The notes below the pieces were generated by a model that was not told the DNA's origin, searched no databases, and was given only the letters and a program-made list of their open reading frames with translations. A stretch of 64,000 bases of DNA, taken from NCBI GenBank assembly GCA_029742005.1, contig GCA_029742005.1_4113.1; one strand, written 5' to 3'. Position 1 is the first letter of the stretch. Each line of letters starts with the position of its first letter. Of the stretch, positions 1 through 64,000 are shown in pieces. The position numbers and the translations under genes were made by a program. This DNA comes from a phage.

Positions 1-196
1 TAGCACACTTTACTAGTGATGAATCGCGGGGCGTTCCCTATTGTGCTGTACATGTAAACACTGAGGGTAACTACTGGTTTACGGTTTACGGTTCATATTC
101 ATTTGGACGGCCAGGGCATCAAAAAATTCTGGATAAAGTACAGCCAACGGGTAAAAATATCACTGCTGAAATGTTTTATAAAAAATCATAAAGTAC

Positions 197-256
197 TTGC
201 AATTAGTTTTTAGTACTGTATAATATTTTACATCGCAAGGGGGAGCGGTTCCCCCT
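197..256 (+). promoter_or_regulatory. early promoter plus 5' stem-loop (PeSL-like)
   Basis: TTGCAA 197-202, 16-nt spacer, TATAAT 219-224; stem-loop AGGGGG/CCCCCT 238-256 just downstream. Confidence 0.65.
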
Positions 257-275
257 GGTAACTAAGGATAATCAA

Positions 276-575
276 ATGAAAATTGCAATCATCGCCCTGG
301 CTTTATCTGTTTCCTCTTTCGCTGTTAATGCGTCATTAGATGTAAGTAGTGAAAAATTCATTCAGTGCACTGTTGCAATGACCGATGAAAGTACTGGCGA
401 GATTGTTTTAAAGGATTTAGAGATCCAGCCGGAAGCATTTAAAAACGGGCCGTTCCATGAAGAAGACGAAAAAGGTAGCACGACAATTTATTACGATGCA
501 AGTACTAAACGCGGTTCGGTCACTGTTATGGATACTGAGAAAGTAACTCATACTGGCGTTATTAATTGCCGTTGA
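276..575 (+). CDS. hypothetical secreted protein (N-terminal signal peptide)
   Basis: ORF track; RBS AAGGA upstream; N-terminus MKIAIIALALSVSSFAVNA is signal-peptide like. Confidence 0.7.
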   Translation: MKIAIIALALSVSSFAVNASLDVSSEKFIQCTVAMTDESTGEIVLKDLEIQPEAFKNGPFHEEDEKGSTTIYYDASTKRGSVTVMDTEKVTHTGVINCR

Positions 576-596
576 TAGATACTACGGGGTAACATC

Positions 597-827
597 ATGA
601 CTAAGCGAATTGTTTTACTTAACGAAAGCAGTACTACACAACTACTTAACGCCGTGCATTATGATATTGAAACGAGCGTTAATCTTATCAGTACTGTCGT
701 ACTGTTGGACACTGGAAAGGTCGCCAATGATAAAGCGATTGCAGGTATACTAACGGATCTTGAGCCTGGTAGCAGTGCACCAATAACGTTAAATGGTAAA
801 GTGTTTAACATTTTACTTACTGATTAA
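597..827 (+). CDS. hypothetical protein
   Basis: ORF track; RBS GGGG upstream; followed by terminator. Confidence 0.6.
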   Translation: MTKRIVLLNESSTTQLLNAVHYDIETSVNLISTVVLLDTGKVANDKAIAGILTDLEPGSSAPITLNGKVFNILLTD

Positions 828-833
828 GTACAT

Positions 834-860
834 AGCCCACCCGGTGGGCTTTTTTGTTTT
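834..860 (+). terminator. rho-independent terminator
   Basis: AGCCCAC..GTGGGCT hairpin then T-run. Confidence 0.7.
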
Positions 861-908
861 TGTAGTATCGTAGTACTGAGATACTTTGAAAATAGTTTTA
901 AAAAATAG

Positions 909-936
909 TTGACATTACCGCAGAAAAGCGTAGAAT
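909..936 (+). promoter_or_regulatory. sigma70-like promoter
   Basis: TTGACA 909-914, 16-nt spacer, TAGAAT 931-936; about 120-nt leader before 1060. Confidence 0.55.
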
Positions 937-1059
937 GTATTACATCAAGACGGGGAGCACTAAGTAGACCGCCAGTAAGTCGAACGAAAAACTGGACACG
1001 TCGAGAAAACTTTGATACACTAATAAACGTAAACTAAACTTTAATTGAGGATTTATAAA

Positions 1060-1542
1060 ATGGCTAATGTAAAATCATTCATCAAAGCACTGGTAGCAAA
1101 TGAAACTAACGTCGCGGCAGAGATCCTGGCTGATCTGGATAACGATACCATGAAAGCGGTACGCAATAATTTTAACATCGCTTATAGTACTGCGAAAGAA
1201 CTACAAGCAAATAAAGCGGCAGAAATTGAAGCGGCAAAGGCGGCCCGTGAAGCAGAACTACAAGCAACAATTGAAAGTATCCAGGCGGCAGTAGTTGGAT
1301 TGGATCTGGAAGTAGTTACAGAGATGGCACAAAAAGCCCTGGCGGTTAAGTATGGGGAAGATAAGCCGGAATCTAAGCCTAAAAAATGGATTCAAAAACG
1401 TGTAGCGGTAGTACTGGACAACGGGGAAGAATATCTGATTCCGGTGCGTGGTAACTGCATTGCGGTAGTACTGGATGCGATTAACTCCAGTGGTATGACT
1501 CGCGAGGAATGGATCGAAGCTCATCGCAAAGTGGAAGCATAA
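1060..1542 (+). CDS. hypothetical protein (Ala/Glu-rich helical segment)
   Basis: ORF track frame; start moved to ATG 1060 behind RBS GAGGA; track ATG 1045 has no RBS. Confidence 0.7.
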   Translation: MANVKSFIKALVANETNVAAEILADLDNDTMKAVRNNFNIAYSTAKELQANKAAEIEAAKAAREAELQATIESIQAAVVGLDLEVVTEMAQKALAVKYGEDKPESKPKKWIQKRVAVVLDNGEEYLIPVRGNCIAVVLDAINSSGMTREEWIEAHRKVEA

Positions 1543-1563
1543 CAATTAAAGTACTGAATCACT

Positions 1564-1593
1564 AGCCCACCTTAAACGGTGGGCTTTTTTGTG
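1564..1593 (+). terminator. rho-independent terminator
   Basis: AGCCCACC..GGTGGGCT hairpin then T6. Confidence 0.75.
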
Positions 1594-1609
1594 TTTATCG
1601 TTTACCAGG

Positions 1610-1680
1610 CCACCAGCACCGCCTAGAAACGATTCTAACGCATTAAACTGATTATCTGATGCATTGCCCTAGCTGGTGGC
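1610..1680 (+). repeat. inverted repeat GCCACCAGC / GCTGGTGGC carrying Chi octamers on both strands
   Basis: 9-bp arms about 50 nt apart; right arm contains GCTGGTGG at 1672-1679. Confidence 0.5.
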
Positions 1681-1744
1681 GTTAAGGCTGTAAGAACGCG
1701 ATTGAGAGCGTTTAAAGTATTTTGCAAAAAGTAATAAAAAGTAC

Positions 1745-1806
1745 TTGCACGATTAAGAGATTAGCGTATAATGTTTTACATCGAGAGGGGGAAACGGTTC
1801 TCCTTC
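1745..1806 (+). promoter_or_regulatory. early promoter plus 5' stem-loop (PeSL-like)
   Basis: TTGCAC 1745-1750, TATAAT 1767-1772, GGGGGAAACGGTTCTCC hairpin. Confidence 0.6.
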
Positions 1807-1827
1807 CAAATCAAAGGAATTAAAACA

Positions 1828-2055
1828 ATGGCTATCGTAATCACTCGCGTAACTGGTACTACTGGCAATTCTTCTACTGTTGCTGTAATTACTAATAAGA
1901 AAGGTGCGGAATTGCATTTTGCAATGGATAAATGGGCCGTTAATGAGTTCGGTCAGTGGGCAAGTGTAGCATACATTGAAACCTATCAAGTGCCGTCAAT
2001 TAGTTTAACTGATTTGGGCGTTGAGCGTATCCTTTGCCTGGATGAATTAAATTAA
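1828..2055 (+). CDS. hypothetical protein
   Basis: track ORF 1771..2055 starts inside the -10 box; start moved to ATG 1828 behind RBS AAAGGA. Confidence 0.65.
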   Translation: MAIVITRVTGTTGNSSTVAVITNKKGAELHFAMDKWAVNEFGQWASVAYIETYQVPSISLTDLGVERILCLDELN

Positions 2056-2063
2056 AAAAGTAC

Positions 2064-2122
2064 TTGCAAAGTAAATCAGATAAAGTATAATACATTACAT
2101 CAAGGGGAGAAATGGTTCTCCC
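2064..2122 (+). promoter_or_regulatory. early promoter plus 5' stem-loop (PeSL-like)
   Basis: TTGCAA 2064-2069, TATAAT 2086-2091, hairpin GGGGAGAAATGGTTCTCCC. Confidence 0.6.
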
Positions 2123-2141
2123 TGATAATGAGGAAACTAAT

Positions 2142-2285
2142 ATGAAAACTTGTCAATGTGGTAAAAAATCTATTACTGGTTTAAAGCGGGGCGTTGCACT
2201 TTGCCAGTACCATTATAATTTACAAGTATGGGGTAAAGAATGGGCCGACCAGGTGGAAGCAGCAAAGAAAGCAAAAAGTAAGTAA
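2142..2285 (+). CDS. small Cys-containing protein (47 aa)
   Basis: hand-called; RBS GAGGAA; translation MKTCQCGKKS..CQYHYN; below track cutoff. Confidence 0.45.
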   Translation: MKTCQCGKKSITGLKRGVALCQYHYNLQVWGKEWADQVEAAKKAKSK

Positions 2286-2304
2286 AAATATTATCACAGT
2301 ACTA

Positions 2305-2333
2305 TTGACATAGTTTGATAGTACTGGCATAAT
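2305..2333 (+). promoter_or_regulatory. class-2 promoter (AGTACT-flanked, no stem-loop)
   Basis: TTGACA 2305-2310, 17-nt spacer, CATAAT; same architecture at 5159 and 11379. Confidence 0.55.
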
Positions 2334-2366
2334 AGATTTTATCAAGACAACTAAGAGGAAATTAAA

Positions 2367-2711
2367 ATGGCTAATATCAACACTATCGCAAAACAAAATA
2401 TCAACCTGTCTTCTGTTGAAGTTGTACATATTGCCGCTCGGCGTTGGTTCCAGGCTTCATATGGTAACACTTATTTCTCTTTAAGTGTAGACGTAGAAAT
2501 TGATGGTAATTTTATTGAAGTAGTAAACGTGCCGTTCCAATATGGATACGGGGATCACTTTGACACTGTAGCAATGGAAGAATTTAGCAAGGTTATTAAT
2601 ATGGAAGATAAGGAGTTTACACGCGGAACGTACCTTTCACGTTTTTGCCGTGATAATAATATCACTGTTTATAGTTCTGTTAGTGATGTTAAACGCAAAA
2701 AAGATCTTTAA
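2367..2711 (+). CDS. hypothetical protein (paralog of 8255..8578)
   Basis: ORF track; RBS AAGAGGA; shares GNTY..Y..VKRKKD with 8255 ORF. Confidence 0.7.
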   Translation: MANINTIAKQNINLSSVEVVHIAARRWFQASYGNTYFSLSVDVEIDGNFIEVVNVPFQYGYGDHFDTVAMEEFSKVINMEDKEFTRGTYLSRFCRDNNITVYSSVSDVKRKKDL

Positions 2712-2791
2712 TTAGCTTTACTTTATGCAGATACTTTGATATAGTGTCTGCATAGGGGAAAGAAATTAAATTAACTTAAGAGGATAGTATA

Positions 2792-3061
2792 ATGAAAAAT
2801 ATCAGTACTTTAATCGATGCAGGTACACATGTTCGGCGGTCAATGGTTGCAACCAGTACTACAAAACAAGTAGCGAGCGGTTATCTTGTATTTGTGCACG
2901 ATGGTAAACTCCTGGAACGTTCAATCAATTTTGATGTTAAAAACAATTGCCGTTTTATTATCTTTCGCCGTGAACAATATAAGATCGACATTCCAGCGAA
3001 GCCCATTAGCGGGGCGTATAACGTCTATTCATTGTTTGAGCGTCAACCATACACCTATTAA
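2792..3061 (+). CDS. hypothetical protein
   Basis: ORF track; RBS AAGAGGA. Confidence 0.6.
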   Translation: MKNISTLIDAGTHVRRSMVATSTTKQVASGYLVFVHDGKLLERSINFDVKNNCRFIIFRREQYKIDIPAKPISGAYNVYSLFERQPYTY

Positions 3062-3112
3062 TCAAAACATCGTTAGCGGTTGATTTAGGCCGCTTATATT
3101 GAGGATTATACC

Positions 3113-3385
3113 ATGAACGTTAATCAAGTACTGAATGAGATCGAAAGCATCATTAAACCGATGAAGCGTACTGATGCTATGTTAACACCGGAAGAATGCC
3201 GCCTATATGAGCGTTATAGCGTCGAACAAGTCCAGGCAATGGCTATGGCTACCCCAGCCGTTAAACCGCCTGAGAATGCGTTACAGGACGTTACAGGGGA
3301 TTATATCATCAATCCAGTACTAGGGAAGATGGCTGCAATCACCGAAGATCAACAAGACTACTTAAGCCAGTACTTAAAAGGTTAA
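3113..3385 (+). CDS. hypothetical protein
   Basis: ORF track; RBS GAGGA. Confidence 0.65.
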   Translation: MNVNQVLNEIESIIKPMKRTDAMLTPEECRLYERYSVEQVQAMAMATPAVKPPENALQDVTGDYIINPVLGKMAAITEDQQDYLSQYLKG

Positions 3386-3390
3386 TTAAT

Positions 3391-3600
3391 ATGCTTACTG
3401 TACAGGATAAGATCGACATCTTAAAGGTTAATATGTATGTGATTGATGCCGTACCTGGTAAAGTATTTGCATACGATGATAGTACTGTAAGCGATTTCTA
3501 CTATAGCCAGGACGTGGGGGATCTTTCTGTACAGTCGGTTATTGAAAACGTAGTTAATGCAGCGTATGAGCATTTACTTTCAAATAGTACTTGCAATTAG
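3391..3600 (+). CDS. hypothetical protein
   Basis: ORF track; 3' end overlaps next promoter. Confidence 0.55.
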   Translation: MLTVQDKIDILKVNMYVIDAVPGKVFAYDDSTVSDFYYSQDVGDLSVQSVIENVVNAAYEHLLSNSTCN

Positions 3601-3650
3601 TTTTTAAACGCGTATAATGTTTTACATGAAGGGGAGAAATGATTCTCCCC
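3591..3650 (+). promoter_or_regulatory. early promoter plus 5' stem-loop (PeSL-like)
   Basis: TTGCAA, TATAAT 3613-3618, hairpin GGGGAGAAATGATTCTCCCC 3631-3650. Confidence 0.6.
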
Positions 3651-3669
3651 ACTAATTAAGGAATATGAA

Positions 3670-3816
3670 ATGAAAGCATCAAAAAAGAGTAATACCAAGA
3701 AAGCATGTTCACCTTTCGCTGGGGTATTCCCTTTACGTTTCGTTGATGAAGTAGTTTCCTACCCGCCGGGCCTTACTCCTGAGATGGTAGAAAGTTTGCG
3801 TAAATCTAAAAAATAG
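3670..3816 (+). CDS. small hypothetical protein (48 aa)
   Basis: hand-called; RBS AAGGAA; below track cutoff. Confidence 0.45.
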   Translation: MKASKKSNTKKACSPFAGVFPLRFVDEVVSYPPGLTPEMVESLRKSKK

Positions 3817-3819
3817 TAC

Positions 3820-3879
3820 TTGCAATTAGTTTTTAGTACTGTATAATAGTTTACATGAAGGGGAGAAATGGTTCTCCCC
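3820..3879 (+). promoter_or_regulatory. early promoter plus 5' stem-loop (PeSL-like)
   Basis: TTGCAA 3820-3825, TATAAT 3842-3847, hairpin GGGGAGAAATGGTTCTCCCC. Confidence 0.6.
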
Positions 3880-3897
3880 AATAACAGGAGAATCAAA

Positions 3898-4050
3898 ATG
3901 AAACAATACAACGCTCGGTTTGATGTTACTATCGGTAACGGCAAAGGTCAATTCTCTTTCAGTACTCGCAAAAGTTATACAGAAAACTTCCTGCGTAATT
4001 GTGCACTGACCGCCGCACAAATTAAACATTATTTTCAGGCTAAAAAATGA
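3898..4050 (+). CDS. small hypothetical protein (50 aa)
   Basis: track ORF 3868..4050 starts inside the stem-loop; start moved to ATG 3898 behind RBS AGGAG. Confidence 0.5.
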   Translation: MKQYNARFDVTIGNGKGQFSFSTRKSYTENFLRNCALTAAQIKHYFQAKK

Positions 4051-4136
4051 AAACATTAGCTTACTATAGTTCGGCCCTGGTCGGTGCATTGATCGCGGCG
4101 TTGTTAGTAACCTATCTATTCTTTATGGTGATTTAA
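4047..4136 (+). CDS. putative small hydrophobic peptide (29 aa)
   Basis: hand-called; ATGA overlap with upstream stop; single hydrophobic helix. Confidence 0.3.
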   Translation: MKTLAYYSSALVGALIAALLVTYLFFMVI

Positions 4137-4280
4137 ATGAATCCAACAGGTTTAAACTATAAAAGTTGTTCGGCGTTTACGAAAGCAAATAAAGCGAATG
4201 CACGTAAAGCGAAAGTACAGGAATACATCAAGCAAGGCATGACGCGAAAGGCGGCGATTCTAAAAGCTAAAAATAAATGA
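4137..4280 (+). CDS. small basic protein (47 aa)
   Basis: hand-called; TAAATG overlap; Lys-rich. Confidence 0.35.
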   Translation: MNPTGLNYKSCSAFTKANKANARKAKVQEYIKQGMTRKAAILKAKNK

Positions 4281-4470
4281 AAAAAGTGGTTGACTCCGGT
4301 CAGCCATTTTGCTATTATATATTCATTGAGAGATAGCTCACTAGCCCACAGGGTGCATAAGTGTATCTATTATATAAGTATTGAGTACTGAAAACTATTT
4401 TTAAAAAGTACTTGCAAACTATCTCAATTGGCGTATAATGTTTTACATCGCAAGGGGAAACGGTTTCCCC
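4281..4470 (+). repeat. intergenic cassette copy 1: hairpin, conserved core, early promoter, 5' stem-loop
   Basis: AAAAAG-TGGTTGACTCCGGTCAGCCA-TTTT hairpin; core AGCCCACAGGGTGCATAAGTGTATC; TTGCAA 4412-4417, TATAAT 4434-4439. Confidence 0.6.
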
Positions 4471-4490
4471 TGGTAATAAGGAAACGAATC

Positions 4491-4832
4491 ATGACTATCT
4501 CAATTGCTCAATCTAACTTTGAAAACGAAATCATCGCCCAGGCACTGCGTTTAAATGATGGTCGGGCCGAAATTAATTACGGTTTCAATTCAGGCGGTTG
4601 CGAAAAATATCAGTACTTTGTAACGGCTGATGGCGGTGTCCTGGGGATCAATACAGTTATTGTAAACATTCAGAAAATTAATTTCAATGATCCAGAAGAT
4701 AGCCAGTTTTACATCACGGGTGTGAACGTGAACTATGAGGATGATTATCTAACTGATGATCACACTGGCGAGAAGTTAGAAAGTGCATACGGTGAAGATG
4801 ATTATCAGTCCGGTCCAGAAGATTTTGAATAA
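4491..4832 (+). CDS. hypothetical protein (acidic C-terminus)
   Basis: track ORF 4428..4832 starts in the promoter; start moved to ATG 4491 behind RBS AAGGAA. Confidence 0.7.
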   Translation: MTISIAQSNFENEIIAQALRLNDGRAEINYGFNSGGCEKYQYFVTADGGVLGINTVIVNIQKINFNDPEDSQFYITGVNVNYEDDYLTDDHTGEKLESAYGEDDYQSGPEDFE

Positions 4833-4846
4833 TATTAAAAAATAGT

Positions 4847-4906
4847 TTGACAATAGATTATAGTACTGTATAATAAGTTACATCAAGGGGAGAAATGATT
4901 CTCCCC
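4847..4906 (+). promoter_or_regulatory. early promoter plus 5' stem-loop (PeSL-like)
   Basis: TTGACA 4847-4852, 17-nt spacer, TATAAT 4870-4875, hairpin GGGGAGAAATGATTCTCCCC. Confidence 0.65.
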
Positions 4907-4927
4907 CACTAACAAAGAGAAAACAAA

Positions 4928-5140
4928 ATGGCTAATATCTGCACTGTACTGAAAAATGCAAAACAAGTTTTATTTTCTGATCATGAAAATTTCAACAAGG
5001 ATATTACGGGCGTTCGGAATATCAAAGATGTAAAAAGTGTTATGGGTATCTATTGCAATATGAAACGTGTTGGTACGTTCGGCGACAAAGTACTATACCA
5101 GGCAGGGGATTATAACTTTACATTAACCATTATCAATTAA
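4928..5140 (+). CDS. hypothetical protein
   Basis: ORF track; RBS AAGAGA. Confidence 0.65.
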   Translation: MANICTVLKNAKQVLFSDHENFNKDITGVRNIKDVKSVMGIYCNMKRVGTFGDKVLYQAGDYNFTLTIIN

Positions 5141-5158
5141 AATATATTACCAGTACTA

Positions 5159-5187
5159 TTGACAATGATTGATAGTACTGGCATAAT
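5159..5187 (+). promoter_or_regulatory. class-2 promoter
   Basis: AGTACTATTGACA..GATAGTACTGGCATAAT. Confidence 0.55.
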
Positions 5188-5231
5188 AACTTTTATCAAC
5201 AGTAGTTAACTTAACAAAAGAGAGAAACAAA

Positions 5232-5375
5232 ATGATCGCACTAGATTCATTCATCGACGCAGTACTGGCAAAAACTGGCGAGGATCTGACCGCAGAACAA
5301 TACGCGATGATCGAACAATGTCAGCAAAACGGTAAATCGGTGAAAGATACTGTTAAGATTATCCGCAAGATGTAA
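5232..5375 (+). CDS. small hypothetical protein (47 aa)
   Basis: hand-called; RBS AAGAGAGA; followed by terminator. Confidence 0.5.
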   Translation: MIALDSFIDAVLAKTGEDLTAEQYAMIEQCQQNGKSVKDTVKIIRKM

Positions 5376-5380
5376 GATTA

Positions 5381-5410
5381 TAGCCCACTGGTTAACGCTG
5401 GTGGGCTATA
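5381..5410 (+). terminator. terminator-like hairpin containing a Chi octamer
   Basis: TAGCCCAC..GTGGGCTA stem; GCTGGTGG at 5397-5404; weak T-tract. Confidence 0.5.
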
Positions 5411-5677
5411 ATTCATTACCCTATACAATGCCAGTACTAAACCGTTTATCTCGTTAGAATGCGTTACAGGACGTTTGACAATGATTAGCATGAAATCAGT
5501 ACAAAAACAAATAGAAACATTATCAAAAATTAAACGTAAACAATACTCCTTAGAATATAATATCAATGGTAACTATCATCTAATGAAAGAAAATAATTTT
5601 ATAGTCATTGATGAATCATTGCAAATTATTAGTATAGTACTGAAAGCATTAATCAATGACAGAAAAAAGTTAAAATA

Positions 5678-5935
5678 ATGGCTGTAGGATTCGCGAAAGA
5701 CGGGGCCGAGCAAGACGAGATTAACGCAGTGATTCAGGCCGCCGTAAACCACGCTAGAAAGCAAATTAACGCACAAATAGAATCACTGATACATTGCCGC
5801 GACTGCGGCGATATAATCCCTGAGAAACGACGCCAGGCCGTTAAGGGATGTAAGTACTGCATAACTTGCCAGGAGGATCATGATAGTACTTTTAAACGTC
5901 CCCCGCGTAATTGTTGGCATAGATCTATGAGATAA
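5678..5935 (+). CDS. TraR/DksA-like C4 zinc-finger protein (putative)
   Basis: ORF track; CxxC..CxxC pattern (CRDC..CKYC) in a basic ~85-aa protein. Confidence 0.5.
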   Translation: MAVGFAKDGAEQDEINAVIQAAVNHARKQINAQIESLIHCRDCGDIIPEKRRQAVKGCKYCITCQEDHDSTFKRPPRNCWHRSMR

Positions 5936-5941
5936 AAAGTA

Positions 5942-5999
5942 TTGACAGTACTATCCAGTAGTGTTATAGTACTTACATCAAGGGGAAACATCTTCCCCT
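5942..5999 (+). promoter_or_regulatory. early promoter plus 5' stem-loop (PeSL-like)
   Basis: TTGACA 5942-5947, TATAGT, hairpin AGGGGAAACATCTTCCCCT. Confidence 0.55.
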
Positions 6000-6016
6000 A
6001 CTAAGAGGAAATGAAA

Positions 6017-6205
6017 ATGGAAAACTTATCAAGTATTTTAGTACAAGATGATTTCGGTAATCCTGGAAGTGCTATCATTGTTCGGGGTAATAAAGCAACA
6101 TTTGTTATTGCTGGTGGACCTGTACAGCGTAGCATTAAAAACAATGCCGTTACTATTAATAATGTACGCTATCGCTTAGATAAAGAATTGATTCATAAAC
6201 TGTAA
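6017..6205 (+). CDS. hypothetical protein
   Basis: ORF track frame; second ATG 6017 better spaced from RBS AAGAGGA. Confidence 0.6.
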   Translation: MENLSSILVQDDFGNPGSAIIVRGNKATFVIAGGPVQRSIKNNAVTINNVRYRLDKELIHKL

Positions 6206-6232
6206 TATTAATTTAATAGAGGATAACAATAA

Positions 6233-6556
6233 ATGTACATTCATACTACTATCACAAAGGAAGTCCGTTGCCAGTTCGAAAGTATTCCGGGCGTATGTTT
6301 CATCACTGGTACGTTTTCCCCTGGTGATCGTGATAATCCAGTACTGTTACAATTACGCCATCCATCATGGGATAAAGCATTTGATCTACCGTTGAATGAA
6401 TTCGCAACTACTGCTGAAAAGTACATTAAAAATATTCGCGAGAATGATCGACTATTCATTAATGCTTTTAGTGATTCCGCGTTAAGCGAGATCCACGGCG
6501 TATTGGTTGCAATCATGGAATCAATGGAGAAAACTAAATTCAAACAAGGTGAATAA
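6233..6556 (+). CDS. hypothetical protein
   Basis: ORF track; RBS AGAGGA. Confidence 0.65.
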   Translation: MYIHTTITKEVRCQFESIPGVCFITGTFSPGDRDNPVLLQLRHPSWDKAFDLPLNEFATTAEKYIKNIRENDRLFINAFSDSALSEIHGVLVAIMESMEKTKFKQGE

Positions 6557-6562
6557 AAACTA

Positions 6563-6622
6563 TTGACAATGTAATCTAGTACTGTATAATAAGTTACATG
6601 AAGGGGAGAAATGATTCTCCCC
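6563..6622 (+). promoter_or_regulatory. early promoter plus 5' stem-loop (PeSL-like)
   Basis: TTGACA, TATAAT 6585-6590, hairpin GGGGAGAAATGATTCTCCCC. Confidence 0.65.
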
Positions 6623-6639
6623 ACTGAGAGGAAAGAAAA

Positions 6640-6852
6640 ATGCAAGGTCAACTAATCGTTCGTAAATGGTCTGATACTAACGAAAAACCGTGGGATGTAC
6701 AATACATCGGACCGGACGGTGTTTCACGTTATCAACCTGGCGTAACGCATAGTACTGAGCAATATGCCGCCGCTCACCGCGAACGCCTGTTAGAATCCAT
6801 GAAACAGGGATTCTGTGAAAAATTCATTCAAGATCATTGGCTGAAAGATTAA
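6640..6852 (+). CDS. hypothetical protein
   Basis: ORF track; RBS GAGAGGAAAG. Confidence 0.65.
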   Translation: MQGQLIVRKWSDTNEKPWDVQYIGPDGVSRYQPGVTHSTEQYAAAHRERLLESMKQGFCEKFIQDHWLKD

Positions 6853-6869
6853 TATAAGGAGTACAGCTT

Positions 6870-7494: not shown

Positions 7495-7543
7495 TAAGTA
7501 GTCCAGGAGTAAGACATACGAAAACCTCCCCTGATAAAATAGT

Positions 7544-7571: not shown

Positions 7572-7601
7572 ACTTACATCAACCACAAAGAGGAATACAA
7601 A

Positions 7602-7802: not shown

Positions 7803-7811
7803 TAAAATAGT

Positions 7812-57104: not shown

Positions 57105-57162
57105 TTTAATTCATGATATAATAATGGGTAAGGAACAATAATTAACACAAGGAGTGTGTGAA

Positions 57163-57891
57163 ATGCTTGACCGTATCCGTTTCGCTACAGAGATGGCGAA
57201 TGAATTAAACATGGCAAATTTCCAAATGTTAACATCAGTAATGGCTGAACATGCATGTGCTTATTCTGTAAGTGGTGTGCAGTGTGGTCAGGAGAATATG
57301 TTAGCAGATGTTTATAGTGAAGTGCAAAGTAAGCAATATAGTGTAAAGACATATAAGGATAAGTTTGTTAGTCTTTATATGAACGAAGATATTGCCGAAG
57401 ACCGTAAATTCACTGATTTTATTATTGAACGCCGAGTATCAGGTGTATCTAATCCTAATGCATCAAGCGAGGAAGTTTTTGCAGAAGTACTGAAAGATAT
57501 ATACGAAAATGAATTAAAAAGTAAGAATCATTACAATGTACGTGAAACTAACACAGTGCTCTTGGGATATGATGAAGACGAAGAATACTATTATTTTCGT
57601 ATGACTGAAGTTCCTTTTGAATACAAATCTCCATATACAACTACAGTGAAAGAATTTACTGAAAAAAGTAAAAACTTCATGAAGCATGAAGGAAATCGTT
57701 GTAGTATAAATGGTTACGACGAAAATGGCATTCACATTTATGAGTGGGTTCACCCAAATTGTCAGACATACACTCGTTGCTTGAAAAAACGTTATAATTT
57801 AGAAGAGCATGAATCATTCTATTTTAAAGTTAAGAAGCAAGGTTACACTCGCCCCGCCGATTCTGAATTGATGGGTATGATATATTTCTAA
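57163..57891 (+). CDS. hypothetical protein (242 aa)
   Basis: track frame 57154..57891; start moved to ATG 57163 behind RBS AAGGAG; TGATATAAT promoter-like box about 45 nt upstream. Confidence 0.6.
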   Translation: MLDRIRFATEMANELNMANFQMLTSVMAEHACAYSVSGVQCGQENMLADVYSEVQSKQYSVKTYKDKFVSLYMNEDIAEDRKFTDFIIERRVSGVSNPNASSEEVFAEVLKDIYENELKSKNHYNVRETNTVLLGYDEDEEYYYFRMTEVPFEYKSPYTTTVKEFTEKSKNFMKHEGNRCSINGYDENGIHIYEWVHPNCQTYTRCLKKRYNLEEHESFYFKVKKQGYTRPADSELMGMIYF

Positions 57892-57901
57892 GGAAACTTC
57901 T

Positions 57902-58183
57902 ATGGATTTTTATCTACACACATGGACATACGAACAATATATTACATTATATCTTGAAATTATTAACACAGAACCTAGGTGTGGTTGTTGGTTCGCAGAT
58001 ATCATAAAAGAGTATGCTGACGAGTTCGAGTTTGTGTATCTTGGGTCTGATATATTTGTAAAAAGTGTAGGTAAAACCGGACGAATCACTGATATAGATT
58101 ACGACACTGTTAGTGTGAATTTCTATGTTGATTTTCCTGATGCTGGAGTTGATGGTGTATATTGTCTTTATGAAATAATTTAA
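57902..58183 (+). CDS. hypothetical protein
   Basis: ORF track. Confidence 0.55.
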   Translation: MDFYLHTWTYEQYITLYLEIINTEPRCGCWFADIIKEYADEFEFVYLGSDIFVKSVGKTGRITDIDYDTVSVNFYVDFPDAGVDGVYCLYEII

Positions 58184-58189
58184 ATTCTT

Positions 58190-58216
58190 AGGCCAGCGTT
58201 TGCTGGTCTTTTTTCG
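58190..58216 (+). terminator. rho-independent terminator
   Basis: AGGCCAGC..GCTGGTCT hairpin then T6. Confidence 0.7.
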
Positions 58217-58227
58217 CAGGTACAAAG

Positions 58228-58530
58228 ATGTTCAGTATAGATTTAATTAACAGTACTATCAAAATGTTGGCTGATTTGGTGAGACAATCCAATGGAACTT
58301 TATATCCATCAATGTATAAAATGTTTGACCGATACATCAAGGATTGTAACATATCATTATATGGACTTACTGTTGATATAGACGATTACTATGGAATTAA
58401 TACTTCATATAAAACAGGAATTTTAATTGGTATTAATATAAAGATGGGGTATTTCCCTTATTACTGTATAGGATTACCAGATAATACTTTGGTAGAATAT
58501 CCAGCCAGTACTATTAAATTAAGAGGATAA
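58228..58530 (+). CDS. hypothetical protein
   Basis: ORF track. Confidence 0.55.
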   Translation: MFSIDLINSTIKMLADLVRQSNGTLYPSMYKMFDRYIKDCNISLYGLTVDIDDYYGINTSYKTGILIGINIKMGYFPYYCIGLPDNTLVEYPASTIKLRG

Positions 58531-58537
58531 AACTAAA

Positions 58538-59116
58538 ATGAATGTATTAGAATTAAGTACTAAGCTGATTAGTATGCGTAATGAGTGGTACGATTGGTTT
58601 TATAATGGTACTGATATGAATTTTTCAAAATATCCATTTATGGAATCAGGATGTGATTCAAGATACCGCTGGTTGAGCAAAAGTGATTCTGGTTTACATA
58701 TTAGAATCGATGATAGTGGTCGAGGAATTATACACGATTTACTTCAAGTTGATCAATTCGTCCATGACAATTGGTGTGATAACGATCCATACCTTGGAAA
58801 TATGATTTATATAAGTGAAGATGATTGCGTATTCGTTATCCAGCGACATGGTAATTCTATGTTTTATGTAGCAGACAGCAGTACACCAGAAGGTGCAGCA
58901 GCCGATGGACTTATGCCTAAAATTGATATATTGGAATTTGGATTACCTGAGCACTTCCAGATTAGTACTTTATACGATATTCCACCACTTGAGTTCTTTG
59001 AAGAATTTAAATTGTACTTCAATGATCTTCAAAAATTGAGTACTGATAGACGCATTGAAATAACTGTTAAGTACATGGACGGAACGAAATTAACCGATAC
59101 GGGGATAGAATTTTGA
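58538..59116 (+). CDS. fam2-like protein
   Basis: ORF track; motif LPEHFQISTLYD. Confidence 0.55.
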   Translation: MNVLELSTKLISMRNEWYDWFYNGTDMNFSKYPFMESGCDSRYRWLSKSDSGLHIRIDDSGRGIIHDLLQVDQFVHDNWCDNDPYLGNMIYISEDDCVFVIQRHGNSMFYVADSSTPEGAAADGLMPKIDILEFGLPEHFQISTLYDIPPLEFFEEFKLYFNDLQKLSTDRRIEITVKYMDGTKLTDTGIEF

Positions 59117-59802
59117 TTAAAGATTTAGATAGAATTTTATATGTACTAAGGGGTGTAATTACATTACATCCACAAATCAATCGAATTGAAAGTACATTTC
59201 AGTTGGAGTCAAGAGAAACTCCATATTCACATATATCAAATGTAGTTGGTTCACTCAGTACTGAAGACTCGTCTTACGATATTTGTGTATGTGAAGTACA
59301 ACCAAGTTCGGATCTTGGATTTGCTATTTTTGATAAAAATCAAAATCTCATTAGTATGTTTCAGTGCAATAATCCTTTTTGGAAAACATGCCTGTATCCA
59401 GAGTGGGCTATGCTTGATCCAACCAAGAGTACCATTAAAGTTTATGACTCTAAAAATGATGAAGTCGTTATTGATTTGGATGAGTCAATGTCAGAGGAAG
59501 AACACTTTCAGCTAATGATGATGCGTGCTATGCCTGAATACAATGCAATGATTAACACAGTGCAATACATTAAGGATACCATGCCATCGTTGCGTACACA
59601 TGAGTTTTGTCATCCGGTATTGTATGAACATCTAGATTTAGACTTCAGTACTATTAAATTTAAAGATAGTGTTATTAGATATATCCAAGAAGTTACTAAA
59701 TTTAATTTCATTAGTACAATGAATAATAACCCTGAAACAAATTTCAGACGACAATATAATGAATCTTTGTCTAATGGACGTGATACCAGTTGGTGGAAAT
59801 AA
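59113..59802 (+). CDS. fam2-like protein
   Basis: ORF track; motif EEEHFQLMMMRA. Confidence 0.55.
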   Translation: MIKDLDRILYVLRGVITLHPQINRIESTFQLESRETPYSHISNVVGSLSTEDSSYDICVCEVQPSSDLGFAIFDKNQNLISMFQCNNPFWKTCLYPEWAMLDPTKSTIKVYDSKNDEVVIDLDESMSEEEHFQLMMMRAMPEYNAMINTVQYIKDTMPSLRTHEFCHPVLYEHLDLDFSTIKFKDSVIRYIQEVTKFNFISTMNNNPETNFRRQYNESLSNGRDTSWWK

Positions 59803-59803
59803 T

Positions 59804-59956
59804 ATGAATATCCAAGATAGATTACAATTACTGTACACACTTGAACAGGCTGCTTATGAACTTGTTCGAAAAATCTCTGAAGAACTCCCTAAAGGAACTA
59901 AAGTTCGTGTACGTGAGATGAATTATTTTTCTGGAAAATTGAAGAACAAGTACTAA
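59804..59956 (+). CDS. small hypothetical protein (50 aa)
   Basis: track frame 59759..59956; start moved to ATG 59804 (TAATATG junction). Confidence 0.4.
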   Translation: MNIQDRLQLLYTLEQAAYELVRKISEELPKGTKVRVREMNYFSGKLKNKY

Positions 59957-60062
59957 CAGTGAATAAAGTAACATACTATGAATCTGAGTTGTCTATTCAG
60001 TGTGAATCAGATGATGGATTAATATCATATTATGGGACTGATATAGACATAGAGGTAATAAA

Positions 60063-61205
60063 ATGACCCTTTTGCAAATATATGAAGATTTAATGCACTT
60101 ATGTAATACAAACGATGCATTCTTTTATGTGGATCATAAAAGTCCTGCTGGTGGCACGTATCGTGTATTCAGTTATCGTCTAGCATCATACACTGATTTC
60201 ATGCAACCAAATGCGTTGGAAACCCGTGGCTCTATGTGGGAAATTGATGAAGAAGGTGAAATGATACGTTGTGCAGCACGTACAATGAAAAAGTTCTTCA
60301 ATGCTTACGAGAATCCTGCTACAATGTTCCCTGCTAACACCACATGCGATGACATTGCGGTAGTGATGCCTAAGTTGGATGGTTCGATTATCAGTACTTA
60401 CCGTGATAATGATGGTGAGATTCGTTGTAAATCACATACTGCATTGTATTCTGACCATGCGATTAATAGTACTCGACTTATTAACGAGAACCAGAATTTG
60501 TATCAGTACATCGACGAAGCGGAACGTTTAGGTTACACAGTTAATATGGAGTATACAAGCCCAGAGTACCGAATTGTATTACCATATCAGGTAGAACAAC
60601 TGTTTGTACTGAACGTTCGTCATCGTGTGAGTGGTGAGTTGCTATGTGGTAAAGCACTACGTGATAAGTTTCCATGTCTTGCACAGTACAGTACTAATAT
60701 GACTGGAAAAGATATTCATCACACTTTTCCGGTACGAAATACCTTCCGTGAAAGCGTGGAGGAAGTTCATAAAATGCTTGATATTGAGGGTTTTGTGTGC
60801 ATCCTAAATAATGGGACAATGTGTAAAATAAAGACTGACTGGTACAGTTCATTACATCTTACAAAAGATAGTATTATTATTGATTCTCATTTATATGAAG
60901 CAGTATTAAATGGTTCAAGTGATGATTTAAAACAATTGTTCAGTACTGATGAATATGCTATGCAAAAGATATTAAGAATGGAACAATTGGTATTTTCGTG
61001 CTATAATGCATTACAAGATGAAGTAGAAAGCTTCGTCAAGGAACACAAGCACTTGGAGCGAAAGGAATTCGCAATGAAGGTTCAGGAGTGTTTAACTAAT
61101 GAACTGAATCGTCAGGGCTTGGCCTTTGCAATGTATAACAATAAGAAAGTTGATTACAAAGAGACTCTTATAAAATACATGAAAATTGTACTAAAGGATT
61201 TTTAG
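60063..61205 (+). CDS. rnlA: RNA ligase 1 (T4 RnlA-like)
   Basis: ORF track; RBS GAGG; KxDG adenylation motif (PKLDGS); YRVFSY, EKFFN..ENP, KIKTDWY..LH..K and SDDLK blocks match recalled T4 RnlA in order; T4-like length 380 aa. Confidence 0.8.
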   Translation: MTLLQIYEDLMHLCNTNDAFFYVDHKSPAGGTYRVFSYRLASYTDFMQPNALETRGSMWEIDEEGEMIRCAARTMKKFFNAYENPATMFPANTTCDDIAVVMPKLDGSIISTYRDNDGEIRCKSHTALYSDHAINSTRLINENQNLYQYIDEAERLGYTVNMEYTSPEYRIVLPYQVEQLFVLNVRHRVSGELLCGKALRDKFPCLAQYSTNMTGKDIHHTFPVRNTFRESVEEVHKMLDIEGFVCILNNGTMCKIKTDWYSSLHLTKDSIIIDSHLYEAVLNGSSDDLKQLFSTDEYAMQKILRMEQLVFSCYNALQDEVESFVKEHKHLERKEFAMKVQECLTNELNRQGLAFAMYNNKKVDYKETLIKYMKIVLKDF

Positions 61206-61235
61206 TACTATCTAGCCTAAGCACAAGGAGAAGTG

Positions 61236-61490
61236 ATGGCTAAACCTAAGTATAAAAATGACGGTTCCCTTTCTCCGACTGAGTTCAGGAAAATACAAGA
61301 AGAAATCGATGAATTACAGCACAAACGCTCAATGAAAGGTGTGAAGATAAGTAAGAAACGAATCGAGAATACCTTCGGATGTAGTAGTACTGAATACAAG
61401 AAGAAAAGGAAACCAAAAGGTGTTAAGCCGAGAATACATGATGTAACTCGCTATACATCGAAACGTGAAAATAAATTTGATCCACTATAA
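61236..61490 (+). CDS. hypothetical basic protein
   Basis: track frame 61233..61490 (GTG); ATG 61236 behind RBS AAGGAGAAG. Confidence 0.55.
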   Translation: MAKPKYKNDGSLSPTEFRKIQEEIDELQHKRSMKGVKISKKRIENTFGCSSTEYKKKRKPKGVKPRIHDVTRYTSKRENKFDPL

Positions 61491-61499
61491 GGAGTTCAT

Positions 61500-61730
61500 A
61501 TGAAAGTTGAAGTTCAGCATAGTATTGTTCAGGATATGTCAGTAGTTAAATTTCTTTCTCTGAAAGATTACTTCAGATGTATCAAGTTCCTAGAAGAATC
61601 TCAATTACAGTGGACCCCATTAAAGTACAGTTCATCCAATGATACTGCTAGTATTCGTTGTGATGAATCTGTACTTGTGAAAATCTCCAAGCGATTTGGA
61701 GTAGGAAAAGTTAATGAGCACAGTAAGTGA
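61500..61730 (+). CDS. hypothetical protein
   Basis: ORF track; RBS AAGGAG. Confidence 0.55.
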   Translation: MKVEVQHSIVQDMSVVKFLSLKDYFRCIKFLEESQLQWTPLKYSSSNDTASIRCDESVLVKISKRFGVGKVNEHSK

Positions 61731-61968
61731 CCTAAAATACTACAACAAAACTGCGGATACGTTTATTACTCATTTATATGAAGAATTTAGTCGTATCCGT
61801 AAGGAATATACAGGTAAATGTATTTTATATAGTTCTTATCATAGTGGTGGAATTGAAAGTGCTTACATTACTAAAGTGAAGTTTTCTGATGACTATCAAT
61901 TACTCTTTGAATTAGATGATTGTTTCGTTATTGAAGCTTGTTTGATAGTGGATGTTCTAGATAATTGA
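61714..61968 (+). CDS. hypothetical protein
   Basis: ORF track. Confidence 0.5.
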   Translation: MSTVSDLKYYNKTADTFITHLYEEFSRIRKEYTGKCILYSSYHSGGIESAYITKVKFSDDYQLLFELDDCFVIEACLIVDVLDN

Positions 61969-61974
61969 GGACAT

Positions 61975-62289
61975 ATGAATAAAGAACTTGCATTTGAGAG
62001 GATCGAAAAGTTAAAGTACATTGAAAAGGAACTAATAGAATCTGTCGAATCAATGGTCGAAGATTACGTTTTCGATTTTAAGAAAACATTGATTGGATGT
62101 AAAGTTAAATGCTGGGATCATACAATCAGAGAATGGTTCAGTACTATAATTCTTGATGTTAAAGTATCGCGTACTGCTATTGGTAATTTAGTAAATGGTG
62201 AATGCTTTGTATACACTGAATACAATAACGGAACAAGAAACCTTTCAAGAGGATGGCACAAACTCGAAGATGTAGAATTCATTGAGTAA
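61975..62289 (+). CDS. hypothetical protein
   Basis: ORF track; RBS GAGGA. Confidence 0.55.
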   Translation: MNKELAFERIEKLKYIEKELIESVESMVEDYVFDFKKTLIGCKVKCWDHTIREWFSTIILDVKVSRTAIGNLVNGECFVYTEYNNGTRNLSRGWHKLEDVEFIE

Positions 62290-62301
62290 CAAGGAGTAAT
62301 A

Positions 62302-63234
62302 ATGCCAACTATTACACTAACAGTTGGATTACCTGGGTGTGGTAAAACCACATGGGCAGTTCAAGAAATTAAAAATGCCAAATCCAAGACTATCAACATC
62401 AACCGTGATGATATTCGTGAATCTATGGCTGGGTCACATGATGCTTACAAATTCAACGATGCTAATGAGCAGTACGTAACTAATTTACAGTTCAGTGCAG
62501 CAAATTCAGCAGCAGAGAATGGTTGGAACATCATCATATCCGATACAAACCTTAAACAACATTTCCGTAATCTCTGGAAAGTATGGGCTAAAGATAATGG
62601 TTATGATTACAAAGAAAAGAACTTCTATGATGATTTTGTACCTAATGAAGACCGTGGTGCAGATGTTCATGAATTCTTTAAGATTAAAGAGTTCGTAAAA
62701 CTTTGTAAGAAATATAACCTTCAGCGTGAGCGTTCAGTACAAGATAATATCATTGACACAATGGCAGATACGTACTATTATAGTAAGGCATTGCACATTG
62801 GTTACTATGGTAATTCACGAGAAGCTGCTGTTATCGTTGATATTGACGGTACTCTTGCTCATAAATGGGGTCGTAATCCTTACGATGAAAGTACTGTTCT
62901 TCAGGATACACCTGATGAAGAAGTTATTTTGTCTATTATCGCTGAAGCAGTTTTTCATAAACGCAAGATTATCGTCATGAGTGGGCGTACTGAAGGGTGT
63001 CGTACTGACACCGAACAGTGGCTTAAGAATTGGGGTGTTCCTTACGATGCATTGTTTATGCGAGGCATCGATGATAAACGTCCTGATGATGTTGTTAAAT
63101 TCGACCTGTACATGAAAAATGTGGTTAATCAATACGATGTTAAAAAGGTATATGATGACCGCGAAGCCGTGACGTTCATGTGGCGTAAGCTACTTGGTTT
63201 GAAGGTATTTCAAGTAGATTTTGGACGTTTTTGA
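62302..63234 (+). CDS. pnk: polynucleotide 5'-kinase / 3'-phosphatase (T4 Pnk-like)
   Basis: ORF track; RBS AAGGAG; N-terminal P-loop GLPGCGKTT; C-terminal HAD-type DxDGT (VDIDGTLA); blocks match recalled T4 Pnk in order. Confidence 0.8.
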   Translation: MPTITLTVGLPGCGKTTWAVQEIKNAKSKTININRDDIRESMAGSHDAYKFNDANEQYVTNLQFSAANSAAENGWNIIISDTNLKQHFRNLWKVWAKDNGYDYKEKNFYDDFVPNEDRGADVHEFFKIKEFVKLCKKYNLQRERSVQDNIIDTMADTYYYSKALHIGYYGNSREAAVIVDIDGTLAHKWGRNPYDESTVLQDTPDEEVILSIIAEAVFHKRKIIVMSGRTEGCRTDTEQWLKNWGVPYDALFMRGIDDKRPDDVVKFDLYMKNVVNQYDVKKVYDDREAVTFMWRKLLGLKVFQVDFGRF

Positions 63235-63274
63235 TAAAATAAATAGTGCATATATGACAAAAAGGACTTTCTAT

Positions 63275-63961
63275 ATGCACTATTATATTATATATAAAAT
63301 AACCAATTTAATTAATAATAAAATTTATATTGGTGCTCATATGACTGATGACATAAATGATGAATATATGGGTTCAGGTGTTCTGATAAAGAAATCCATT
63401 AAGAAATATGGAATTGAAAAATTCAATAAAGAAATACTTTATATTTTTGATAATAAAGAAGAAATGTATAACAAAGAAAGAGAAATTGTTAATGAACAAT
63501 TTATACAAAGAAGCGACACATATAACATCAAACGTGGTGGAGAAGGTGGCTACGGCGTAATTGATAAAGAAAATTGGAAAAAACAAATATCAACGACACA
63601 AAAGAAGCGATATTCTTCAGGTGTTGTGGCTTGGAATAAAGGTAAATCTGTATCAGAAGAAACACGTATTCAAATGAGTCAGAGGATGAAAGGTCGTTTC
63701 CCTGGAGATAAAAATCCTATGCATGGTAAACCCTGTACATATAAAATGACAGATGAAGAAAAAACATCATGGTCCAACAATATAAAGAAATCAAACACTG
63801 GTAAAAAGAGAACTGATGTTCAAAAACAAAAATATTCTTCGGTCGCGTCAAAACGAATTTGGTTAGTTCATAAAAGTGGTAAAGTTACTAATACACAAAA
63901 TGAAAATGACCCACGTTTGAATGATCCAGATTGGCAACGTGGTCAAAAGTGGAGAGAATGA
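63275..63961 (+). CDS. GIY-YIG homing endonuclease (Seg/I-TevI-like)
   Basis: track frame 63221..63961; start moved to ATG 63275 behind RBS AAAGGA; IYKITN..KIYIG..NIKRGGEG pattern; basic C-terminal half; locally very AT-rich. Confidence 0.65.
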   Translation: MHYYIIYKITNLINNKIYIGAHMTDDINDEYMGSGVLIKKSIKKYGIEKFNKEILYIFDNKEEMYNKEREIVNEQFIQRSDTYNIKRGGEGGYGVIDKENWKKQISTTQKKRYSSGVVAWNKGKSVSEETRIQMSQRMKGRFPGDKNPMHGKPCTYKMTDEEKTSWSNNIKKSNTGKKRTDVQKQKYSSVASKRIWLVHKSGKVTNTQNENDPRLNDPDWQRGQKWRE

Positions 63962-64000
63962 ATATTTTTATGGATTATAATTTTTGAGGGATCATAATTT

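Follow-up and report, generated by a model that had tools for sequence, protein, structure and literature searches.

Chi (GCTGGTGG), DNA uptake sequences and FtsK-orienting polar sequences (KOPS) are short words that are kept dense by selection and read by proteins genome-wide. The closest described analogue of the element studied here is the highly iterated palindrome HIP1 (GCGATCGC) of cyanobacterial chromosomes (PMC5861425; PMC4390886), an octameric palindrome that is 15-300 times more abundant than expected, is built on a nested core, lies both within and between genes, and is conserved beyond background, which argues for selection, in genomes that also encode orphan methyltransferases. 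Here, we analyze a comparable word, the palindrome AGTACT with its best form CAGTACTG, in a 64,000-nt stretch of phage DNA (contig GCA_029742005.1_4113.1 of assembly GCA_029742005.1, hereafter the window), which is 93-98% identical to the Asteriusvirus jumbo coliphages 121Q, PBECO4, phAPEC6, and slurp01 (121Q/PBECO4 group). The excess of AGTACT is clade-wide and independent of codon phase, and it reshapes both codon choice and dipeptide content. We consider the chances to be about even that AGTACT, with CAGTACTG as its optimum, is a highly iterated palindrome and a DNA-level word kept genome-wide by direct selection. Given that the excess is maintained by selection and recurs in an unrelated prophage family, the word probably serves for recognition by a putative DNA-reading protein.

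A dispersed palindrome in jumbo phages and unrelated prophages

The window (1..64000) contains 223 AGTACT against 21.4 expected from base composition (10-fold) and 557 GTAC against 196 (2.8-fold), together with 42 copies of CAGTACTG. Under a maximal-order Markov model of the window, no 4-mer is more over-represented than GTAC (z=14.6), and AGTACT, CAGTAC, and GTACTG head the over-represented 6-mers. An initial annotation of this DNA had estimated a 5-15 fold excess for both palindromes, which is too high for GTAC. Its spacing of roughly 100-200 bp for AGTACT in the first 13 kb agrees with the 156 bp measured in the first 13.4 kb, whereas the 50-70 bp given for GTAC is too short, the measured interval being 96-115 bp, with 15-17 copies in the densest 1-kb windows.

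The over-representation is real, since it survives Markov, synonymous-codon, and codon-permutation controls. When synonymous codons are shuffled within genes, 345 GTAC are expected where 503 are observed (z=11.8) and 52 AGTACT where 178 are observed (z=20), and permutation of codons lowers these expectations to 229 and 23, respectively. The outcome that would have overturned the claim, k-mer counts within the expected range once codon usage and dinucleotide composition are controlled, was therefore not found. GTAC is spread almost evenly over the three codon phases (163/169/162), and AGTACT is also in excess in the intergenic DNA of the first 13.4 kb (36 copies vs. 1.7 expected). The 24-nt flanks differ at all 223 AGTACT sites, which still form 204 clusters when up to 6 mismatches in 24 are allowed. 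Since the flanks are all distinct, repeats and paralogues are excluded as the cause of the excess. The shared flanks that characterize REP/MITE-like elements (repetitive extragenic palindromes and miniature inverted-repeat transposable elements) are not seen at these sites, repeats being limited to promoter cassettes. Together, the Markov, shuffle, and flank tests rule out an artefact of codons, dinucleotides, or paralogues.

Although the excess is window-wide, as the initial annotation held, it is not uniform. The densest zone is 1..13400 (+ strand), with 86 AGTACT sites, or 6.4 per kb, a density that rises to 11 per kb between genes, while the packed gene arrays at 28263..64000 (+ strand) carry 124 coding AGTACT in all phases (3.3 per kb). 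There is no AGTACT at 20,320-28,262, a block discussed below, nor in a module of ~75-amino-acid paralogous genes at 13400..18800 (+ strand), in which AGTAC is nearly nil and the few GTAC belong to a conserved coding TGTACT. This AGTAC-poor module is flanked by saturated DNA, a pattern that is repeated in TH47, a relative used for comparison (87% nucleotide identity), and it may be a differently constrained module or a later arrival. Density lies at 2.6-6.4 AGTACT per kb, and density profiles were examined at the 10-kb scale. Over the short range analyzed (≤100 bp), the spacing of AGTACT sites is Poisson-like except for a promoter bump at 20-22 bp.

The enriched unit is AGTACT rather than GTAC. 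In the whole-genome relative ECO103 4-12-1 (351,992 bp), AGTACT is present 919 times vs. 101 expected (9-fold) and CAGTACTG 204 times vs. 4.4 (46-fold), whereas GTAC with a single A/T flank is enriched 1.6-2.1-fold and GTAC with neither flank 1.07-1.6-fold, GGTACC and CGTACG being absent. The excess of GTAC is a by-product of that of AGTACT. Around GTAC, the information falls off symmetrically, giving a two-fold symmetric C-A-GTAC-T-G, and the flank preference for C is equal on both half-sites whichever direction the gene is transcribed. This indicates that the word is read as symmetric double-stranded DNA and not as RNA.

The pressure exerted on coding sequence is considerable. Genome-wide, 389 of 742 Ser-Thr dipeptides (52%) are written AGTACT, against the 16% expected from codon usage, and of the AGTACT sites possible in the two remaining frames, 37% and 42% are realized where 6-9% would be expected. 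Synonymous opportunities to write the word are taken in 51% of cases in middle/late genes, compared with 62-64% for early genes and the arrays. Among dipeptides, ST, VL, and QY are 1.4-fold over-represented, while the reversed TS, LV, and YQ are at about 1.0. Since this excess is directional, it is the DNA word that shapes the proteins and not the reverse.

Individual AGTACT sites are under purifying selection, as seen when they are compared with local, phase-matched control 6-mers in TH47. In one comparison 48 of 52 sites are kept vs. 36.2 expected (z=3.6) and, in the arrays at 28263..64000, 43 of 63 vs. 25.4 (z=4.5), so that 91 of 115 sites in the pooled comparison are conserved vs. 61.6 expected (combined z ~5.8). 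GTAC sites lacking the A/T flanks show no excess conservation relative to TH47. In the comparison with ECO103, site conservation is weaker but in the same direction. Lineage-specific AGTACT sites are balanced (25 vs. 31), and their counterparts are varied one-mismatch sequences of many mismatch types.

The word stands out all the more because the premise of the initial annotation, that phages deplete short palindromes, applies here in a striking form. GCGC is absent from the window and from whole ~350-kb genomes across the clade (130-290 expected), and, of the 64 hexamer palindromes, ECO103 lacks 23 and a RaK2-like Klebsiella phage 19. Since palindromes are otherwise purged, AGTACT is the lone exception. 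The absent sets differ by host (for ECO103 and the Klebsiella phage, respectively, GGTACC is at 0/33 and 44/26, observed/expected, and CTTAAG at 52/89 and 0/80), while the excess of AGTACT is constant across hosts. In these genomes, GATC is at ~0.6 times its expected frequency.

The same excess is found well beyond Asteriusvirus. The complete RaK2-like Klebsiella phage has 945 AGTACT vs. 80 expected and 246 CAGTACTG vs. 3.1 (79-fold), with no GCGC (131 expected), and in relatives of the GAP32, CBB, Serratia BF, and Yersinia types (58% identity in the RNA ligase) AGTACT is in 13-15-fold excess and GCGC is lacking. T4-like phages of E. coli and Klebsiella have no AGTACT excess and normal GCGC. 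In 31 kb of the phi92-like coliphage pEC-M2929-1AR.1 (L027), AGTACT is missing altogether (9.3 expected), as are other hexamer palindromes. Scanning IMG/VR for two CAGTACTG within 38 bp returned, besides jumbo-phage fragments, a family of ~31-35-kb contigs with a G+C content of 0.40-0.44 (L032, L042, L043, L058, L064, L066, L067, L098, L107, L128, L129, L131-L133, L138, and L139). This lambda-like temperate family is unrelated to jumbo phages, its terminase being of the lambda gpA type, its portal of the lambda family, and its capsid of the HK97 type. When pooled, they contain 708 AGTACT vs. 47.6 expected (15-fold), no GCGC, and no GGTACC (23 expected), and write 67% of their Ser-Thr dipeptides as AGTACT. 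Close terminase relatives of this family lie inside chromosomal contigs of Leclercia, Enterobacter, and Phytobacter (L148-L151), at loci with 42-110 AGTACT per 21.8 kb, the Leclercia locus having no GCGC vs. 36 expected. Sphingomonas loci with distant terminase homologues have no AGTACT. In the prophage of L148, two CAGTACTG copies form a terminator-like hairpin at 7,120-7,165 (GGGGCAGTACTGG...CCAGTACTGCCCC). The hairpin belongs to a group of seven AGTACT sites clustered in 190 bp of intergenic DNA, with a promoter downstream. Since the excess is shared by unrelated prophages, the word is not tied to the jumbo-phage replication machinery. The reader may be host-encoded or mobile, which is equally possible as a phage factor. 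Our literature search found no prior report of GTAC/AGTACT over-representation in phages, Asteriusvirus and its relatives included.

Early promoters and an ACT-free block

The initial annotation had placed AGTACT at fixed positions in promoters, with AGTACTG directly abutting TATAAT, and this was borne out. The early region (1..13400, + strand) is terminal-repeat-like and consists of small genes with one sigma-70-type promoter each, and the first ~13 kb of the window maps within the direct terminal repeat (20,993 bp) of phage fEgEco12 (PMC13070987). In the first 13 kb, AGTACT occupies fixed offsets in 15 of the 22 promoter-like sites upstream of genes, and the cassettes concerned are repeat families. 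The word overlaps the TG of the extended -10 (AGTAC-TG-TATAAT) or the first T of the -35 (AGTAC-TTGCAA), or else it shares the last A of the -35 (TTGAC-AGTACT) or abuts it (AGTACT-A-TTGACA). Three promoter strings recur in the window: AGTACTGTATAAT (n=7), AGTACTTGCAA (n=7), and AGTACTATTGACA (n=3). A two-site cassette at 3811..3884 (+ strand), which combines AGTAC-TTGCAA with AGTAC-TG-TATAAT and is followed by a conserved 5' hairpin, exemplifies the arrangement. This promoter plus 5' hairpin, 74 nt long, constitutes family D1, of which 13 copies start on the + strand at 188, 1736, 2055, 3582, 3811, 4403, 4838, 6554, 7417, 7803, 10715, 11691, and 12560. The GC-rich hairpin of D1 (188-261 and 12 more), of the GGGGAGAAATGATTCTCCCC type, is conserved and follows the early promoters immediately, where early transcripts are predicted to begin.

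The class-2 promoters described in the initial annotation, with AGTACT on both sides of the -35, are likewise present, in three cassettes in which the two sites are 22 bp apart. The first of these (family D5, 2285..2345, + strand) reads AGTACT-A-TTGACA-N10-AGTACT-GG-CATAAT, the further copies occupy 5139-5199 and 11359-11419, with a related cassette near 8590-8630. The arrangement AGTACTG-N-ATAAT is also found in the early regions of ECO103 and RaK2-type phages and is thus conserved across genera. This placement fits either an operator role or a word sited where its letters can be shared with constrained hexamers.

An intergenic element of ~93-138 nt is present in four copies in the same region (4270-4407, 7277-7369, 10581-10718, and 11985-12077), with a TTGACT-17-TATTAT promoter of its own that is followed by a conserved ...AGCCCACAGGGTGCATAAGTGTATC. 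It may represent a small RNA gene family, without a match in Rfam.

As for the block devoid of AGTACT (20320..28262, + strand), it contains 44 AGTACA and no TGTACT. Within it, the sense strand of 20859..28192 (+ strand; 7,334 nt) is completely free of the trinucleotide ACT, of which ~143 would be expected (P ~1e-62), while its reverse complement AGT, as well as ACA, ACC, and ACG, are at normal frequency. Since ACT is absent from the sense strand, AGTACT is forbidden in the block. AGTACA, often as CAGTACA, takes its place on the sense strand, in three codon phases and at 5.6 per kb (12-fold enriched), so that the sense-strand density of AGTAC (5.8 per kb) is close to that in the flanks (6.1 per kb). 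In the homologous block of ECO103, AGTACA encodes 90% of Ser-Thr dipeptides. This enrichment of AGTACA to the per-strand density of the flanks, precisely where AGTACT is forbidden, favors selection that acts directly on the sequence and speaks against a conversion process. The confinement of AGTACA to the sense strand is explained by the ban on ACT, and a strand-specific reading, RNA- or Chi-like, was rejected on this ground.

When all trinucleotides were considered on both strands of the 352-kb ECO103 genome, the ACT gap was the sole gap of its kind (8,212 nt; 285,452-293,663 of L007). The ACT-free zone is kept in three Asteriusviruses (in TH47, 15,701-22,675 of L017), and none was found in the RaK2-like Klebsiella phage. 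A sigma-70-like promoter at 20,050-20,078 precedes the start of the zone by ~0.8 kb, with only two ACT in between, and the zone ends close to an intergenic region and spans ~19 Asteriusvirus-specific genes with no assigned function. In sequence terms, the block has the appearance of a group of ACU-free mRNAs that a sequence-specific ribonuclease (RNase) could not cleave, resembling ACA-less mRNAs and MazF in the strand-specific, frame-independent, and total absence of a 3-nt word across transcription units. Such a pattern would be expected of transcripts immune to an RNase with this word as its target. The block differs from the MazF case in that we know of no ACU-specific enzyme in E. coli or in these phages; T4 RegB acts at GGAG. 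Among toxin endoribonucleases with other specificities (PMC5408214; PMC10864209), ChpBK is specific for ACY and Kid for UUACU (PMC5408214). Our literature search found no description of a natural, operon-scale, site-free block of this kind.

Candidate readers and rival explanations

The two-fold symmetry of the word and its graded, independent half-site preferences point to a symmetric reader of double-stranded DNA, a role that would suit a DNA-binding dimer or a modification enzyme of type-II-like character. Because other palindromes are purged from these genomes and the phi92-like phage has no AGTACT, the ~900 sites per genome would have to be masked, and methylation or a bound protein could provide the mask. 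Reading such a dense mark would serve a genome-wide function, possibly to protect, identify, or organize phage DNA, while sites fused to the -35 or the extended -10 would additionally let occupancy tune early transcription. That AGTACT is a modification mark is a tentative possibility, a site for an abundant binding protein of phage or host is only slightly less likely, and a nuclease, topoisomerase, or recombination site is improbable. The initial annotation had offered three explanations: recognition by a phage factor, DNA modification at the motif, and an unusual mutational bias. A selected recognition word, which is compatible with the first two, is favored, and mutational bias is disfavored, the reader being as likely host-encoded or mobile as a phage factor.

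The enzymes considered are two orphan methyltransferases shared across the jumbo clade and retained at 64% identity in the RaK2 genus, a C5 enzyme of Dnmt3 size and an N6-adenine DNA methyltransferase of the PF05869 (Dam) family, a candidate reader or modifier encoded at 52253..52774 (+ strand). In published digests with ten enzymes, none of them cutting at GTAC, fEgEco12 DNA behaved like unmodified DNA (PMC13070987). Several results weigh against a reader of the kind we favor. Neither methyltransferase can be linked to AGTACT outside the clade: homologues of the Dam-family enzyme with at least 48% identity were found only in a jumbo-phage, RaK2-like synteny, and the C5 enzyme has a 51%-identical homologue in the phi92-like phage without AGTACT, so both were rejected as a shared factor. 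The portions examined of AGTACT-rich prophages show no canonical methyltransferase motif, and no candidate for a DNA-binding protein, nuclease, or RNase emerged when early-region, ACT-block, and prophage early proteins were scanned with Pfam and PHROG, the early-region proteins of the ~33-kb prophage family having no Pfam match. Over the short range covered (≤100 bp), the spacing analysis reveals no cooperative or periodic arrays of AGTACT. Finally, a site-restoring repair process could in principle also yield the conservation observed between relatives, and the half-site data are explained equally well by a dimer and by a per-strand CAGTAC signal.

Known binding proteins were also considered. 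The half-site geometry of LexA/TrpR-type operators does not fit. SlmA was of interest since its E. coli binding sequence GTGAGTACTCAC has AGTACT as its central hexamer, like the phage word (PMC3020112), and since cells infected with Asteriusvirus Sharanji filament (PMC11895373). However, SlmA requires the flanks G1, T2, and a purine at position 3, where the phage word prefers C, a pyrimidine. There is not one full 12-bp palindrome GTRAGYRCTYAC (G1, T2, A4, and G5 required) in ECO103 and the window, and SlmA half-site flanks are under-represented (19 vs. 51.5 expected). Nucleoid-occlusion sites for SlmA were rejected on this evidence.

How the excess might otherwise arise depends on whether it is selected at all. 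In a model of the type proposed by Elhai for HIP1, methylation-linked repair of the very-short-patch type or a polymerase bias would keep turning near-cognate sequences into AGTACT, and the excess would be neutral. This model could draw on the two orphan methyltransferases of the jumbo clade, on a mild enrichment (1.2-2.1-fold) of the single-mismatch neighbors of AGTACT, and on the nesting GTAC < AGTACT < CAGTACTG, which parallels GATC < CGATCG < GCGATCGC (PMC4390886). We nevertheless find it unlikely, since not one precursor class is depleted, differences between relatives are balanced and involve many mismatch types, and the one-step precursor AGTACA, far from being avoided, is 12-fold enriched in the ACT-free block. 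Moreover, AGTAC-free modules persist within the same genome, and small integrated prophages share the excess with no canonical methyltransferase motif in the portions examined, while a 50-kb sample of E. coli K-12 has just 0.22 AGTACT per kb. Were the word selected but read on one strand, CAGTAC would be the unit that an enzyme reads as it translocates or primes, for instance as a Chi-like nuclease regulator or a primase start site, and the palindrome would be a compact way of placing it on both strands. The outer-flank preferences of the two half-sites are indeed statistically independent, the ACT-free block does keep the unit on one strand at nearly the density of the flanks, and these phages are rich in E. 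coli Chi sites. Still, we judge this reading to be fairly doubtful, as AGTACT is found 919 times where independent half-sites would give ~750, the one-strand state of the block is forced by the ban on ACT with no orientation bias elsewhere, and there is no known need for priming or Chi-like sites of such density.

The two remaining alternatives confine the function of the word or deny it at the DNA level. If AGTACT were the operator of an early-gene regulator, with intragenic copies being incidental, its fixed positions in 15 of 22 early promoter-like sites, the class-2 pairs 22 bp apart, the conservation of the arrangement in the RaK2 genus, and the density peak in promoter DNA would all be accounted for. 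That would leave ~900 sites per genome unexplained, ~80% of them intragenic and themselves conserved, and late structural genes using 51% of their synonymous opportunities; promoter placement, in turn, may reflect letter sharing. We consider this explanation improbable. An RNA motif AGUACU, or an artefact of codons, dipeptides, dinucleotides, or repeats, might be suspected because the genes of the window are all on one strand and Ser-Thr, Val-Leu, and Gln-Tyr dipeptides are over-represented. We regard this as very improbable in view of the symmetry with respect to transcription, the intergenic excess, the occurrence in all codon phases with distinct flanks, the survival of the shuffle and Markov controls, and the directional dipeptide excess (ST and not TS).

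With direct selection on a DNA-level word remaining the reading we favor, we put forward, as a tentative proposal, that AGTACT/CAGTACTG is an identity tag read by a protein common to unrelated Enterobacteriaceae phages and that, independently, the mRNAs of the ACT-free operon would be immune to an ACU-specific endoribonuclease during infection. If the first part were true, the reader would be host-encoded or on a mobile gene, and the tag would be a new genome-wide cis-signal that protects or organizes phage DNA without wholesale base modification. If the second part were true, the remaining phage transcripts and host transcripts would be the substrates.

Neighboring features and known systems

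Every gene of the window is on the + strand. Downstream of the early region, the window consists of tightly packed arrays of small genes without assigned function. It also encodes a T4-type RNA ligase 1 (60,063-61,205) and a polynucleotide kinase/phosphatase (62,302-63,234), which form a tRNA repair pair, and an open reading frame with a NUMOD3 (homing-endonuclease DNA-binding) motif (63,221-63,961). The early region has a weakly protein-kinase-like gene at 9,941-10,582. Searches of the window for Rfam families and for tRNAs returned no match. Chi (GCTGGTGG) is found on the + strand at 1672, 5397, 6110, 7378, 9761, 11891, 12113, and 60147, and on the - strand at 1610 and 51508. The eight forward sites compare with 0.22 expected, seven of them being in the first 12.2 kb, within the terminal-repeat region, and Chi is present 28 times in ECO103 and 20 times in the RaK2-like genome. 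This strong, oriented enrichment suggests protection against RecBCD. As for other depleted words, GAGGAG is missing from the window (13 expected), and TATTTA (6 vs. 44.5) and TAAATA (12 vs. 36) are strongly depleted under the Markov model. Strong words of Shine-Dalgarno-like and T4-late-promoter-like type may be under negative selection inside early genes.

The biological implications are several. Phages are textbook avoiders of palindromes, and yet one palindrome is kept here at ~900 copies in genomes from which a third of the hexamer palindromes and GCGC have been eliminated. Since the word is found in lytic jumbo phages as well as in small temperate prophages, it points to a strong and previously unrecognized phage DNA-protein interaction. 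Discovery of the reader could reveal a new principle of self-marking or anti-defence and illuminate the 30-year-old puzzle of HIP1. The excess is also a cheap computational marker for phage lifestyle, and recoding such genomes for phage engineering or therapy may break the signal. The ACT-free operon, for its part, points to a possibly new sequence-specific RNase axis in infection.

When set against known systems, AGTACT is clearly distinct from a word shaped by restriction-site avoidance. The same genomes show such avoidance in extreme form (GCGC, GGTACC, CGTACG, and ~20 more palindromes are absent), and the phi92-like coliphage avoids AGTACT itself, whereas in its carriers AGTACT shows the opposite, a 9-15-fold excess. 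It also differs from Chi, DNA uptake sequences, and KOPS, which are asymmetric and orientation-dependent, while AGTACT is palindromic and without strand bias, the asymmetry of AGTACA in the block being imposed by the ban on ACT. The resemblance is closest to HIP1. As in HIP1, the palindrome exceeds expectation by an order of magnitude or more (9-15-fold for AGTACT and 46-79-fold for CAGTACTG, compared with 15-300-fold for HIP1), it is dispersed as single copies within and between genes in any frame, its sites are conserved beyond background between relatives, and the genomes carry orphan methyltransferases. In contrast to HIP1, AGTACT is AT-rich and not GC-rich, its carriers are phages and prophages, it is far denser, it stands against a background of palindrome depletion, it is built into promoters, and its putative link to methyltransferases is partly contradicted.

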